In this document: in pieces, positions 39,756-63,457 of the stretch
How the letters are laid out: every line of letters starts with the position of its first letter
How positions within the stretch are numbered: the first letter of the stretch is position 1
NCBI GenBank assembly: GCA_016186115.1
Contig: JACPMK010000003.1
Span: forward strand, 154,470-218,469
DNA length: 64,000 nucleotides
Direction of reading: 5' to 3'
From: Candidatus Wildermuthbacteria bacterium
GTDB taxonomy: Bacteria > Patescibacteriota > Minisyncoccia > Minisyncoccales > UBA10102
The notes under the pieces: model-generated
What the model was told of the DNA's origin: nothing
Databases searched by the model: none
The model's input: the letters and a program-made list of their open reading frames with translations, nothing else
Translations under genes and position numbers: made by a program

Positions 39756-42248
39756 ATGTCTTTTCTGGCGAAATTATTTCGCAATGTCGCCCAAGGCGAT
39801 TTGCGGACATTTAATTCTGTTATCTCTGCAATAAATGCCCTTGAGAATCAATGGGCTGTTTTTTCATCAGAACAATTGAAAGAAAAAACCAAAGAACTTA
39901 AAGAAGAACTTCGCAGTGGCAAATCTCTTGACGACGTATTGCCCGAGGCCTTTGCTCAAGTTCGTGAGGCAGCAAAACGCACCTTAGGGCAGCGGCATTT
40001 TGACGTTCAGCTCATGGGCGGTATTGTTTTGCATCAAGGAAAGATCGCTGAAATGAAAACAGGAGAAGGAAAGACCCTTGCTGCAACATTACCCGCGTAT
40101 CTCAATGCGCTTGAGGAAAAAGGCGTGCATATTGTGACAGTAAATGATTATCTTGCAAAACGGGACACGGTCTGGATGGGGCAGATTTACCATGCACTTG
40201 GTTTAGCCGTGGGATGTATCACGCATGACGCATCGTACCTGTACGATCCTCATTATACATCCCAAATCCCAATGGCCAATGACCAAAATACGGAGCGAGA
40301 CAAAGAGCGTGACACAGTGGGCGGGTTCAAAGTGATCGAGAGTTATCTGCGACCGGTTTCGCGCAAAGAGGCCTATGCCGCTGACATTACCTATGGCACC
40401 AACAATGAATTTGGATTCGACTATTTGCGAGATAACATGATGTATAATCTGGAGGAGCGGGTGCAGCGAGAACACCAATTCGCAATCATTGATGAAATCG
40501 ACTCGATTTTGATTGATGAATCGAGAACTCCTTTAATTATATCTGCTCCAGACGAGGAAAGTTCTAAATGGTATTATGATTTTGCGCATCTGATTCCTCA
40601 TCTGGTCGCAAAAGAGGATTACGAGGTCGATGAAAAACTCAAAGCAGTTACACTTACAGAACAGGGTGTCAACAAAGTTGAGCAATTGCTTGGCGTGAAA
40701 GATATTTATGAAGAGAAAGGAATTAAATATCTTCATCATTTGGAGCAAGCGCTCCGAGCCCAGGTATTATTTCAGTGCGACCGTGATTATGTGGTCCGCA
40801 ATGGCGAGGTGATTATTGTAGATGAGTTTACGGGCCGTCTCTTGCCCGGTCGGAGATTTTCCGGCGGGCTTCATCAGGCATTGGAGGCAAAGGAAGGCGT
40901 CAAAGTGCAGCCAGAATCAATCACCTTGGCTTCCATTACCTTTCAGAATTATTTTCGAACGTATAAAAAATTAGCAGGTATGACCGGAACCGCAGAAACC
41001 TCTGCAGAAGAATTTCATAAGGTCTACAACTTGGAAGTAGTCGTTGTTCCAACCAATAAATTAATGATTCGAAAGGATTTGCCTGATCAAATTTATAAAA
41101 CCGCACAAGCGAAATTCGAGGCAGTTGCAAAACAAGTAAAAGAACTTCACGACAAGGGGCAGCCGGTTCTTATTGGCACGGTCTCAATCCAAAAGAATGA
41201 ATATTTGAGTAAATTACTGGAGCGGGAAGGAGTTCCGCATCAGGTTCTCAATGCCAAGCATCATGAAAAAGAAGGAGAAATTATCGCTCAAGCCGGGCGT
41301 CTGGGCGCAGTGACCGTTGCCACCAACATGGCAGGCCGCGGTGTGGATATCATCCTCGGGGGGAACCCGCAGGTTCCCGGAGATGTGGAGCGGTGCAGAA
41401 GCATTGGGGGGCTCCATGTGATTGGAACCGAGCGCCACGAAGCACGAAGAATCGACAATCAGCTTCGCGGAAGATCGGGGAGGCAAGGTGATCCCGGTTC
41501 CTCTCAATTTTTTGTTTCTTTGGAAGACGATCTCATCCGAATCTTTGGAGGCGATCGTATTGCAAAAATTATGGATCGTTTGCATTTGCCGGAAGATCAG
41601 CCCATTGAGTCGGGAATTATTTCCCATGCCATTGAGTCAGCGCAATCACGGATCGAGGGCATGAACTTCGATACCAGAAAACACCTTCTTGATTTTGACG
41701 ACGTGCTCAACAAGCACAGGGATGTAATATATAGGAAGCGAAAAGAAATTCTTGAGAAGGCCCAAGTGCAGGATTCGAATAACCCCGCGAGTTTAAAAGC
41801 GTATCTGCTTCCATTCTGTGAGCAGCACGGCTACACGCGGGAAGATTATGAAAAGAAAGAAAAAGAGCTGGGCCAAGAAAATATGCGGCAAGCCGAGAAG
41901 ATTGTTGCATTGCGCGCCATTGATTCGTTGTGGGTTGAACATTTGGAAAACATGGAGCAGTTGCGCGACTCGGTGCGGCTGCGCGCCTATGGCCAGCAGG
42001 ATCCCTTGGTGGAGTACAAACACGAGGGTCACCAAATGTTTCAGAATCTTCTTGCTACTATGGAAGAATTGATCGCGAATTCTTTGATGCGTGTCCAGAT
42101 CGCCCCTCGACAGAACTCGGGGCAAGCCCCCCAAACTTCGCAGCAGATGGCATCTGTACGATCTCCGAACGCTGCTCCCAAGGTTGGCAGAAATGATCCT
42201 TGCCCCTGCGGAAGCGGTTTAAAGTATAAAAAGTGCCACGGGAAATAA
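39756..42248 (+). CDS. secA: Preprotein translocase ATPase SecA
   Basis: MKTGEGKTL Walker [40 protein letters not shown], and the C-terminal zinc tail [15 protein letters not shown]. Confidence 0.95.
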
Positions 42249-42249
42249 T

Positions 42250-42423
42250 ATGGCAATAAAACCAAAATGCGACAAATGTAAAAAGGAGTTGAAAGAATTT
42301 GGAGGAATTCTATTGAGTCCACCAAAGAAGAATGTGGTGAAGAAATTTCACCTATGCCAAAAATGTTATTATGAGATTTCTCGTGGCCTGGGTAAGAAAT
42401 ATAAGAAGTGTCATGGAAAATAG
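42250..42423 (+). CDS. 57-aa zinc-ribbon-like protein ending in a SecA-tail-like motif (..[10 protein letters not shown])
   Basis: The ATG lies 1 nt after the secA stop. The sequence is [57 protein letters not shown], with CxxC at residues 7-10 and 35-38. The stop is 1 nt before the next ATG. Confidence 0.5.
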
Positions 42424-61359: not shown

Positions 61360-61788
61360 ATGAATGGGAATAAAGACAAGAAATTTATTGCGGTGGCGGT
61401 GGCGTTGGTGAAAAGAGGGGATGAAATTTTAATGACTCTCCGAAATGAAAAAGCGCTCCCTGAAGCGCATTTGAAATGGGAATTGCCCGGAGGCAAAATT
61501 GACTTTGGAGAAACTCCCGAACAAGCGCTGATTCGGGAAATACGCGAAGAAACCGGATATACAGTAAAAATAATTGATAAAAATCCGATTATACGCACCC
61601 ATATTTGGGAATATCCCACATTATCTTTGCATGCGCTTTGTTTGGGATATAAATGTAAAGTAGTCGACGAGCAGAAACCGAAAAACGATCCAAGCATTAA
61701 AGCCATCGCTTGGAAGAAAATCCGCGACTTGGATTATTCCCAAACCCTCCGCGGCACCAAAGAATTTCTAGAGGCAATGAGGAAATAA
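61360..61788 (+). CDS. NUDIX hydrolase
   Basis: Nudix box GGKIDFGETPEQALIREIREETG. Confidence 0.85.
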   Translation: MNGNKDKKFIAVAVALVKRGDEILMTLRNEKALPEAHLKWELPGGKIDFGETPEQALIREIREETGYTVKIIDKNPIIRTHIWEYPTLSLHALCLGYKCKVVDEQKPKNDPSIKAIAWKKIRDLDYSQTLRGTKEFLEAMRK

Positions 61789-61823
61789 GAAATACGTAGG
61801 TAGCCTCATAGACCAAACATAAA

Positions 61824-61851
61824 TTGACATCCCCTTTTGCAAAATTATAAT
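61824..61851 (+). promoter_or_regulatory. Consensus sigma70-like promoter abutting the ATG (TTGACA-16nt-TATAAT)
   Basis: -35 at 61824-61829 and -10 at 61846-61851, with 6 nt to the ATG at 61858. Confidence 0.6.
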
Positions 61852-61857
61852 GAAAAC

Positions 61858-62067
61858 ATGCCTTTAACCAAGCAGGATTTAAAACAAATAAAAAAGGTTG
61901 TTATTGAGGCGGTTGATCCGTATTTTACTGCAATACAACAAGATTTTGGGCAAGTATATGGGCGTTTCGACAGAATCGAAAAGCTCATGCTTGCGGATCA
62001 TAAGAGGCGAATAGAGAAACTCGAGCTAGAAGTGCGCGAACTAAAAGATTTGCTCGCAATAAAGTAA
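61858..62067 (+). CDS. Small coiled-coil protein (69 aa), paralog of 63076-63318
   Basis: The ATG at 61858 is preferred over the TTG at 61837, which lies inside the promoter. The shared C-terminal block is RFDRIEK..L.DH+RRIEKLE..V+EL+D.LA.K. Confidence 0.6.
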   Translation: MPLTKQDLKQIKKVVIEAVDPYFTAIQQDFGQVYGRFDRIEKLMLADHKRRIEKLELEVRELKDLLAIK

Positions 62068-62326: not shown

Positions 62327-62779
62327 ATGCCAGGAGAAAGATTTAAAATTACCCCAGCGGTACATCTCATACTACAGAAAGGGGAGAAAATTTTTCTTTC
62401 GCTTCGCAAGAACACGGGATGGCATGATGGAGAATACAGTTTACCCTCCGGGCATTTGGAGGGGAATGAAACATTGCTGGAGGCAATGACAAGAGAAGCA
62501 AAAGAAGAAATTGGCATTACAGTCGCCTCCGAAGATTTGCGACTGGTCCATGTAATGCATAGGAAACAATCAGATCAAGAAAGGATTGACTTTTTCTTCT
62601 CCGCCACGAAATGGTCTGGCGAACCCGAAAATAAAGAGCCCGAAAAATGCGGGGGTTTGGGTTGGTACGAAATCCCTTCGCTCGGGGTAATCTTGCCGAT
62701 AGATATTATTCCTTATGTCGAGCAGGCAGTACGACAATCCTTCGGAGGAAAATTCTATAGTGAATATGGCTGGGATTGA
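62327..62779 (+). CDS. NUDIX hydrolase
   Basis: Nudix box GHLEGNETLLEAMTREAKEEIG. An SD-like AGGGAGGA lies upstream. Confidence 0.85.
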   Translation: MPGERFKITPAVHLILQKGEKIFLSLRKNTGWHDGEYSLPSGHLEGNETLLEAMTREAKEEIGITVASEDLRLVHVMHRKQSDQERIDFFFSATKWSGEPENKEPEKCGGLGWYEIPSLGVILPIDIIPYVEQAVRQSFGGKFYSEYGWD

Positions 62780-62788
62780 GCAACTCTC

Positions 62789-62816
62789 TTGACGACTATG
62801 GTTGGGCTGGTATAGT
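62789..62816 (+). promoter_or_regulatory. sigma70-like promoter (TTGACG-16nt-TATAGT) driving a non-coding transcript
   Basis: -35 at 62789-62794 and -10 at 62811-62816. No credible ORF lies downstream before the terminator at 63010. Confidence 0.5.
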
Positions 62817-62822
62817 GAAAAC

Positions 62823-63038
62823 ATCTGGAGGAGGACCTGTGCCGGGAAAATCGAAGAGGCCTCTTACCAGTTGGTTGTGTGGCGTGGTAGGTGAGAGTGT
62901 CCTTGGGGATTGACGGACGCTCTATGCGTTCCTTGCCCCTCCTTTTCGGGTGGACATCTCTCTCGTTGTGGGAGGCGTGATCCCGGCCACGCCCGCCCCC
63001 AACTAAAATAAAGGACGAGTTTATCTCGTCCTTTTATA
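62823..63038 (+). ncRNA. Candidate structured small RNA (~215 nt, GC-rich, rod-like; 6S-like architecture, family unassigned)
   Basis: It is bounded by the promoter at 62789-62816 and the terminator hairpin at 63010-63034 plus a T-run. The ends pair as an interrupted ~15-bp helix (62827-62846 with 62982-63000). Inner helices are 62859-62865/62970-62976 and 62893-62902/62952-62962, with a large asymmetric internal loop. Confidence 0.45.
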
Positions 63039-63039
63039 T

Positions 63040-63069
63040 TTGACACCCGTTCTATGTCGCCAGTAGAAT
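63040..63069 (+). promoter_or_regulatory. sigma70-like promoter abutting the ATG (TTGACA-18nt-TAGAAT)
   Basis: -35 at 63040-63045 and -10 at 63064-63069, with 6 nt to the ATG at 63076. Confidence 0.55.
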
Positions 63070-63075
63070 AGATGT

Positions 63076-63318
63076 ATGGAAAGTAATAACCATGAAGTTA
63101 CCAACGAGGAACTCGCAAGAATGGTTGCGAAGGGCTTTGAGGGAGTTCCGACAAAGCAAGAAATGAACGCACGTTTTGATGAGGTGAGTGACCGATTCGA
63201 CAAAATCGACAAGCGTCTCGAGCATATAGAGAAATTTTTGCTTGAGGATCACCGCAGAAGAATAGAAAAATTGGAGGAACAAGTGAAAGAGCTGCGCGAT
63301 GCGCTTGCAATGAAGTAA
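63076..63318 (+). CDS. Small coiled-coil protein (80 aa), paralog of 61858-62067
   Basis: The C-terminal DRFDKIDKRLEHIEKFLLEDHRRRIEKLEEQVKELRDALAMK aligns with the other copy. Confidence 0.6.
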   Translation: MESNNHEVTNEELARMVAKGFEGVPTKQEMNARFDEVSDRFDKIDKRLEHIEKFLLEDHRRRIEKLEEQVKELRDALAMK

Positions 63319-63347: not shown

Positions 63348-63363
63348 AGATATAAGGGAAGTT

Positions 63364-63386: not shown

Positions 63387-63457
63387 TCAAAAGACGAGTC
63401 AAGAGCTTGTCCTTTTATATTTGAGAAATTTCTAGCAAAGCACAGCGTCTTAATTCT

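Follow-up and report, generated by a model that had tools for sequence, protein, structure and literature searches.

The 297-nt gap between a NUDIX hydrolase gene (62327 to 62779) and a gene for a small coiled-coil protein (63076 to 63318) of a Candidatus Wildermuthbacteria bacterium very probably holds a genuine noncoding RNA gene, as predicted from the sequence of the window, i.e., the whole 64,000-nt stretch of DNA analyzed here. The best explanation overall, which has about an even chance of being right in all its parts, is an independently transcribed, noncoding, structured small RNA (sRNA) gene that belongs to a new and narrowly distributed family. The one informative relative is locus L051 in Logan sample ERR3281024, which was reached via its NUDIX protein (P0032; 78 to 81% identical to that of the window, with 118 of 146 residues, or 81%, identical in the global alignment). 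The earlier note had proposed a promoter- and terminator-bounded, structured RNA without a protein product, and this description is supported by the recurrence of the whole unit in the second species. The further proposal of a 6S-like RNA was not supported. Features of the RNA gene described below lie on the plus strand.

Boundaries and noncoding nature of the RNA gene

The predicted promoter (62789 to 62816) is of the sigma-70 type, with a −35 box TTGACG, a 16-nt spacer, and a TG-extended −10 element (TGGTATAGT). In the promoter scan, TTGACG-16-TATAGT matched the consensus at 10 of 12 positions, and the TG lies at 62808 to 62809. The consensus match alone is not significant, with six sites found in 3 kb versus 4.8 expected. 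The promoter is credible because its layout is kept in L051 (TTGACT-16-TATAGT with the TG, at 2087 to 2114), where the promoter region is approximately 87% identical to that of the window, compared with 43% at neutral sites. The intrinsic terminator (63010 to 63041) was identified by the terminator scan as a 10-bp stem with a 5-nt loop (63010 to 63034) followed by a U-tract, and the stem-loop was scored on the minus strand too. The terminator of L051 (2399 to 2421) occupies the same place with a different stem sequence. Both signals had been named in the earlier note, including the T-run after the terminator, and both were recovered by the scans. From their positions, a transcript of about 215 to 220 nt is predicted (62823 to 63041), which would start at an A located 7 nt past the −10 box and end in the U-tract of the terminator. 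The segment 63023 to 63041, consisting of the 3′ half of the terminator, the T-tract, and TTGA, recurs with one mismatch at 63405 to 63423, within the terminator that follows the coiled-coil gene, which suggests a duplicated terminator/promoter junction.

The body of the gene had been described as visibly richer in G+C than its flanks, and it is in fact the window-wide maximum. The G+C content is 0.54 to 0.64 over 62800 to 63000 in 100-nt windows and about 0.35 to 0.45 in the flanks, and the 200-nt bin 62801 to 63000 (0.59) ranks first among the 320 bins of the 64-kb window, in which a typical value is about 0.44. The absence of a credible open reading frame (ORF) from the gap was confirmed. 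The ORFs present start only with TTG or GTG and encode 30 to 60 amino acids, and no conserved ORF was found in the comparison of the gap with its L051 homolog, because 1-nt indels occur within the conserved blocks. The sole start codon preceded by a Shine-Dalgarno sequence, the GUG at 62839, corresponds to CUG in L051, and the peptides downstream of the two codons are unrelated, with only two residues in common. The frame-breaking 1-nt indels lie inside both of the blocks described below as B and C, which excludes a coding function. A conserved coding signal, which the earlier note had named as evidence against an RNA gene, is therefore not what the comparison revealed. Thus, the features generally expected of a stand-alone sRNA gene are present, namely, its own promoter and terminator, a noncoding body, and conservation as a unit, with transcription itself being a prediction.

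Conservation and distribution

The NUDIX genes of the window and L051 are identical at 18 of 42 four-fold degenerate sites (43%), which indicates that neutral sites are near saturation. Against this background, two blocks of the RNA are nearly invariant in the alignments. Block B (62826 to 62851; UGGAG..GGACC.G.UGCCGGGAA.AU) includes the core GCCGGGA (62841 to 62847). Block C (62973 to 63003; AGGCGUGAUCCCGG(C)CACGCC.G(C)CCCCAA) ends in a C-rich tail (62994 to 63003); its first 14 nt are identical between the window and L051 (15 with a 1-nt gap), and a 1-nt indel separates these from 6 more identical positions. The comparison of the two sequences shows that blocks B and C are under strong purifying selection.

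In L051, the promoter, a G+C-rich body, and a terminator directly follow the NUDIX stop codon, as in the window. The RNA of the window detected its L051 counterpart by nhmmer with an E value of 1.3e−6, and a covariance model based only on the window sequence aligned L051 over its full length (31.6 bits; E value of about 4e−6). The copies differ in length, the window copy having about 190 nt plus the terminator and the L051 copy having about 280 to 300 nt (about 280 nt plus the terminator). Lack of conservation in the orthologous region, which would have counted against the gene, was not observed, since L051 keeps the unit, its selective conservation, and some compensatory changes.

In addition, the NUDIX or coiled-coil protein is encoded without any change in 13 near-identical Logan contigs. 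Twelve of these also have an RNA 100% identical to that of the window, and a G-to-A change at 62948 was found in the remaining contig (L011; Logan SRR4343435), so these contigs provide no covariation information. This contig is a strain variant with a 12-nt deletion at 63351 to 63362, just downstream of the coiled-coil gene. Over the remainder of its 2.4 kb, it shares 99.2% identity with the window, and its G-to-A change falls in the apex of the RNA, which is variable.

Beyond L051, searches returned no further member. The same covariance model had no other match in 326 kb of Patescibacteria-type loci, and no RNA homolog was detected by nhmmer in 28 genome loci with NUDIX proteins at most 53% identical; the closest species-level genomes among these are Patescibacteria. 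The element is also absent from the loci of NUDIX homologs with 59 to 70% identity. Another gene directly follows the NUDIX gene of P0033 (66% identical), the NUDIX gene of P0034 is followed by an A+T-rich gap of 516 nt without an RNA homolog, and the NUDIX homolog P0039 is located at a contig end. Upstream (5′) of the 66%-identical NUDIX homolog (locus L052, positions 255 to 400), a segment with raised G+C content, hairpins, and CUCCUCC was observed, which shows no homology with the RNA. The contexts of six coiled-coil homologs (P0001, P0002, P0004, P0005, P0010, and P0012) are not syntenic and contain no RNA. The block C pattern GGCGTGATCCCGGN{0,1}CACGCC gave 102 matches in a scan of 241 million metagenome records, and these matches were judged to be due to chance because the contigs have G+C contents of 53 to 77% and show no similarity past the seed. 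The only match among viral contigs is one of the same chance matches, and blastn against phage and plasmid collections returned no RNA homolog. The RNA family is narrowly distributed as judged from these sequence searches and is known from two species, so covariation statistics are weak.

Predicted secondary structure

A three-hairpin architecture, rather than a single rod, is the somewhat better supported model of the RNA, in which a 5′ hairpin (P1) would be followed by a long variable central hairpin and then by a short 3′ hairpin (P4) with the C-rich tail. P1 (62827 to 62868) pairs 62827 to 62838 with 62857 to 62868 through 11 bp with two 1-nt bulges, and its apical loop (62839 to 62856) contains the core of block B. 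Its pair probability in the window ensemble is 0.97 to 1.0. Of its 11 pairs, 7 are unchanged in L051, 1 is changed on one side, 2 are changed on both sides in a compensatory manner (G-C to A-U and U-A to A-U), and 1 is broken; this alignment is anchored in the flanking conserved sequence, and the manual and Infernal versions agree. In L051, P1 is bordered on each side by an insertion specific to that locus, and the two insertions form a 12-bp helix at the base of P1 (p = 0.95), an arrangement that is nested-compatible only if P1 is a local hairpin.

The long central hairpin (62893 to 62962) appears in both the minimum free energy (MFE) and the centroid structures, with a basal helix of 10 bp (62893 to 62902 with 62952 to 62962) below a branched G+C-rich apex. 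The earlier hand fold contained the same 10-bp helix, which is robustly predicted, as part of the MFE structure and with a probability of about 0.91 to 0.95 in the window ensemble. L051 has a central hairpin of 12 + 12 bp at the corresponding place (p = 0.77 to 0.99). Local alignments of the central region between the window and L051 score no better than those of shuffled sequence. A manual alignment yields three apparent compensatory pairs in this hairpin, which were not relied on because the alignment is at chance level and Infernal aligns the region differently.

P4 (62974 to 62993) pairs GGCGUG (62974 to 62979) with CACGCC (62988 to 62993) around the loop AUCCCGGC (62980 to 62987). Its sequence is invariant in L051, where it forms a 9-bp hairpin (p = 0.94) with the core of block C unpaired in a 7-nt loop. 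In the window copy, P4 competes with a window-specific long-range helix (62870 to 62888 with 62987 to 63005), and enforcing P4 costs 6 kcal/mol; the core of block C is mostly paired elsewhere than in the P4-loop arrangement in this ensemble. The MFE of the window copy is −78.5 kcal/mol. The folding z score of the window copy is −4.0 with the terminator included but a modest −2.4 without it, 3 of 200 shuffled sequences being as stable; the corresponding value without the terminator for L051 is −2.2. Two helices of L051 have no counterpart in the window. The first (2155 to 2166 with 2223 to 2235) lies basal to the 5′ hairpin and the second (2275 to 2286 with 2339 to 2350) basal to the central hairpin, and the window copy has a larger branched apex in their place. 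Helices are gained and lost as modules around the conserved core.

Complementarity between the two outer loops

The block B core GCCGGGA (62841 to 62847) in the P1 loop is perfectly complementary to UCCCGGC (62981 to 62987) in the P4 loop, with a duplex energy of −14.3 kcal/mol, and both cores are unpaired in the L051 ensemble. The complementarity can be extended into an interrupted B:C helix of 17 bp, with energies of −26.5 and −26.6 kcal/mol in the two species. Since the cores sit in the two outer loops, an intramolecular loop-loop (kissing) contact between P1 and P4 is proposed. When the blocks were shuffled with the same G-rich and C-rich compositions, a complementarity of at least 7 nt was obtained in 5.5% of cases (chance P of about 0.055), and the contact is thus put forward as a hypothesis, one that the sequence makes plausible but slightly less probable than its absence. 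The contact may nucleate and extend into the 17-bp helix, in which case each block would be held by two alternative structures; this would account for the invariance of even both P4 strands in an RNA whose P1 and terminator vary.

GC-rich loop-loop (kissing) contacts are known from RNA I and RNA II of ColE1. Like those RNAs, the RNA described here would have 6 to 7 G+C-rich pairs between a hairpin loop of 7 to 8 nt and a second apical loop, in a contact that could be extended into a longer duplex. Unlike them, it carries both loops in one molecule, with a contact that is inferred from sequence and with no plasmid or antisense context.

Possible functions and alternative explanations

The RNA may act in trans as a folded particle whose partner, most likely a protein, recognizes the invariant elements. 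This partner-binding mode of action is tentative, at roughly one chance in three, and a plain antisense RNA appears less likely than that.

The alternative of an ordinary trans-acting, base-pairing sRNA, whose C-rich elements would block G-rich or Shine-Dalgarno regions in the manner of RsaE/RoxS or alpha-r14, is unlikely but has the most in its favor among the competing explanations. The RNA resembles these sRNAs in having its own promoter and Rho-independent terminator, loops of the UCCC or CCUCC type, and the narrow, genus-level spread that is typical of sRNAs. The C-rich single-stranded elements comprise the UCCCGG loop, the CCCC(C)AA tail, and a CCUCC in the central apex, and both the UCCC-containing hairpin loop and the C-rich tail are conserved. 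However, the perfect complement of the C-rich loop lies in the same RNA, unlike in RsaE/RoxS and alpha-r14, and in the window copy some of the CCUCC is base-paired. How often GCCGGGA and CCTCC occur across the window was uninformative. No targets were found either. When the conserved loops were tested for duplex formation with the translation initiation regions of 58 window genes, nothing rose above background; random coding windows paired better than these regions did, and none of the genes emerged as a target. Furthermore, the loci examined provide no context of an Hfq- or ProQ-type chaperone. The central loop of L051 (ACACCUCCACC) aligns weakly to alpha-r14 (14.7 bits; E value of 1.8), but the gathering threshold is 58.8 bits and the window copy gives no match. 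An alpha-r14-type sRNA (RF02344), which has several hairpins with CCUCCUCCC loops, was rejected because no score reached at least 58.8 bits.

Less probable still, and improbable in itself, is that this RNA serves the lineage as its 6S-type RNA. 6S RNA is defined by its shape and by its binding of RNA polymerase. In such a structure, the B:C helix would form the closing stem and the middle part a bubble with a terminal stem beyond it; the resulting rod would mimic an open promoter and sequester the sigma-70 polymerase. Several properties agree with this reading. The RNA is a stand-alone gene of about 200 nt with a strong promoter, the window copy has a fitting size (about 190 to 215 nt), and the 17-bp interrupted helix can join its 5′ and 3′ portions in both species. 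A long, irregular terminal hairpin occurs in the middle of both copies, alternative conformations are possible, and the invariance of blocks B and C is compatible with the dual-structure constraints described for the refolding of 6S RNA.

The known-family searches argue against it. A cmscan of the 64-kb window with Rfam 15 at the gathering thresholds returned only three tRNAs, and no 6S RNA was found at these thresholds in L051 or L156. With a lax filter (E value of ≤10), 62700 to 63120 of the window and 2081 to 2530 of L051 contained no match to 6S, 6S-Flavo, SRP, tmRNA, RNase P, or riboswitch models, and ARAGORN detected no tmRNA. The statement in the earlier note that neither an SRP domain-IV motif nor a tmRNA end is present is in line with these results, and the cmscan that it suggested for 6S and SRP yielded no family for either copy. 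Rfam matches to Termite-leu, sraA, DapZ, mir-67, and ar14 on one copy or the other were attributed to the terminator or to chance. In favor of the 6S reading, divergent phyla are known to escape the Rfam 6S models (RF00013 and related models).

All the helices of the hand-drawn rod can be drawn, including 62827 to 62846 with 62982 to 63000 (15 bp; −21.8 kcal/mol) and 62859 to 62865 with 62970 to 62976, but the enforced rod has −67.8 kcal/mol and lies 10.7 kcal/mol above the MFE. Forcing the B:C core alone costs 8 kcal/mol in both species, and the long-range B:C pairs have probabilities of about 0.00 in the ensembles of both homologs. The second rod helix weakens from −9.4 kcal/mol in the window to −4.1 kcal/mol in L051. 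The large central bubble, regarded earlier as a hallmark, is not conserved; its 5′ side in L051 would be about 77 nt (versus 13 nt) and would itself be base-paired. The covariation check against the homologous region gave compensatory pairs for P1, and the compensatory changes of L051, together with its inserted helix, favor the competing local P1. In addition, the L051 copy has extra helices and is about 280 to 300 nt long, compared with about 150 to 220 nt for 6S RNA, and the searches made found no wider distribution than two species, whereas 6S RNA occurs phylum-wide. The three-hairpin reading is therefore retained over the 6S-like candidate of the earlier note; a hand-drawn rod was insufficient for a 6S call, and a single diverged homolog favored another architecture.

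Two more speculative readings, together given about one chance in ten, are a functional 6S analog that switches between the kissed three-hairpin state and the B:C-closed rod and an RNA coupled to the NUDIX protein. The former would be an RNA polymerase- or protein-sequestering RNA in a candidate phyla radiation (CPR) lineage. In the latter, the RNA would be a 5′-capped (NAD-type) or triphosphate substrate of the NUDIX protein, or its regulator, and such a coupling would account for NUDIX being its sole conserved neighbor. If true, either one would make this the first characterized regulatory RNA of Patescibacteria.

It is quite improbable that the RNA is a cis element of the NUDIX mRNA, that is, a structured 3′ untranslated region or terminator that stabilizes or processes the message. 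The NUDIX gene is the sole neighbor common to both RNA-bearing species, and the terminator scan found no terminator between its stop codon and the RNA, so NUDIX transcripts must run on into the RNA. However, a near-consensus TG-extended promoter whose −35 box lies 9 nt past the NUDIX stop codon is kept in L051, and NUDIX homologs with 59 to 70% identity do without the RNA. The NUDIX protein itself (150 amino acids) is generic, matching PF00293 and scoring below every NCBIfam equivalog cutoff.

Least probable is that the RNA serves the downstream gene as a regulatory leader in cis, i.e., a riboswitch or attenuator, or that it is an mRNA for a small protein or type I toxin, which a structured, G+C-rich, terminator-ending element upstream of a gene and an SD-like GGAGGAGG before the GUG at 62839 might suggest, but which the comparison with L051 largely refutes: the downstream genes differ (coiled-coil here, a secreted 792-aa protein there), the one here has its own promoter and looks leaderless, the GUG is replaced and the blocks carry 1-nt indels as described above, no hydrophobic small ORF exists, and no riboswitch family matches either copy.

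Relation to other orphan structured RNAs

Screens of G+C-rich intergenic regions (GC-IGRs) in A+T-rich genomes have uncovered orphan structured RNAs (PMC6429828, PMC8632094, and PMC11109978). The RNA described here shares with them the signature of a long intergenic region that stands out in G+C content, as well as modular helices and conserved loop sequences. Unlike the GC-IGR families in Rfam 15, it matches no model and has two representatives, and with these two it would fail the covariation standards of the GC-IGR studies.

A literature search for 6S or structured RNAs in Patescibacteria or Wildermuthbacteria found nothing relevant, and almost nothing has been reported, as far as this search shows, on regulatory or structured RNAs of CPR bacteria beyond the universal ones. 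With predicted ends, purifying selection, and a testable tertiary contact, the RNA is a clean candidate that can be cloned and probed directly, and more members, if found, would define a new RNA family.

Neighboring genes

The downstream gene (ATG at 63076) encodes a coiled-coil protein of 80 amino acids and has a separate promoter, TTGACA-18-TAGAAT (63040 to 63069, plus strand), which was identified by the promoter scan and from the sequence and ends 7 nt before the ATG. The RNA is consequently not the leader of this gene, which is apparently a leaderless transcription unit of its own. In L051, all neighbors other than the NUDIX gene differ from those of the window.

The regions 61360 to 62067 and 62327 to 63318 are tandem paralogous pairs, each consisting of a NUDIX gene (142 and 150 amino acids) followed by a coiled-coil gene (76 and 80 amino acids), and the RNA gene is found only in the second pair. 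The motif DH(K/R)RRIEKLE is found at the C terminus of both coiled-coil proteins. Both of their genes (ATGs at 61858 and 63076) look leaderless; each lacks a Shine-Dalgarno sequence and has a near-consensus promoter that stops 7 nt short of its ATG (TTGACA-16-TATAAT in the region 61824 to 61860 and TTGACA-18-TAGAAT in the region 63040 to 63078). Other Patescibacteria contigs also carry homologs of the coiled-coil proteins, in multiple copies and in differing contexts.

Elsewhere in the window, a 57-aa ORF (42250 to 42423) with CxxC pairs lies right after secA (39756 to 42248). It ends in ...KKYKKCHGK, which repeats the C-terminal zinc-binding tail of SecA itself, ...LKYKKCHGK.
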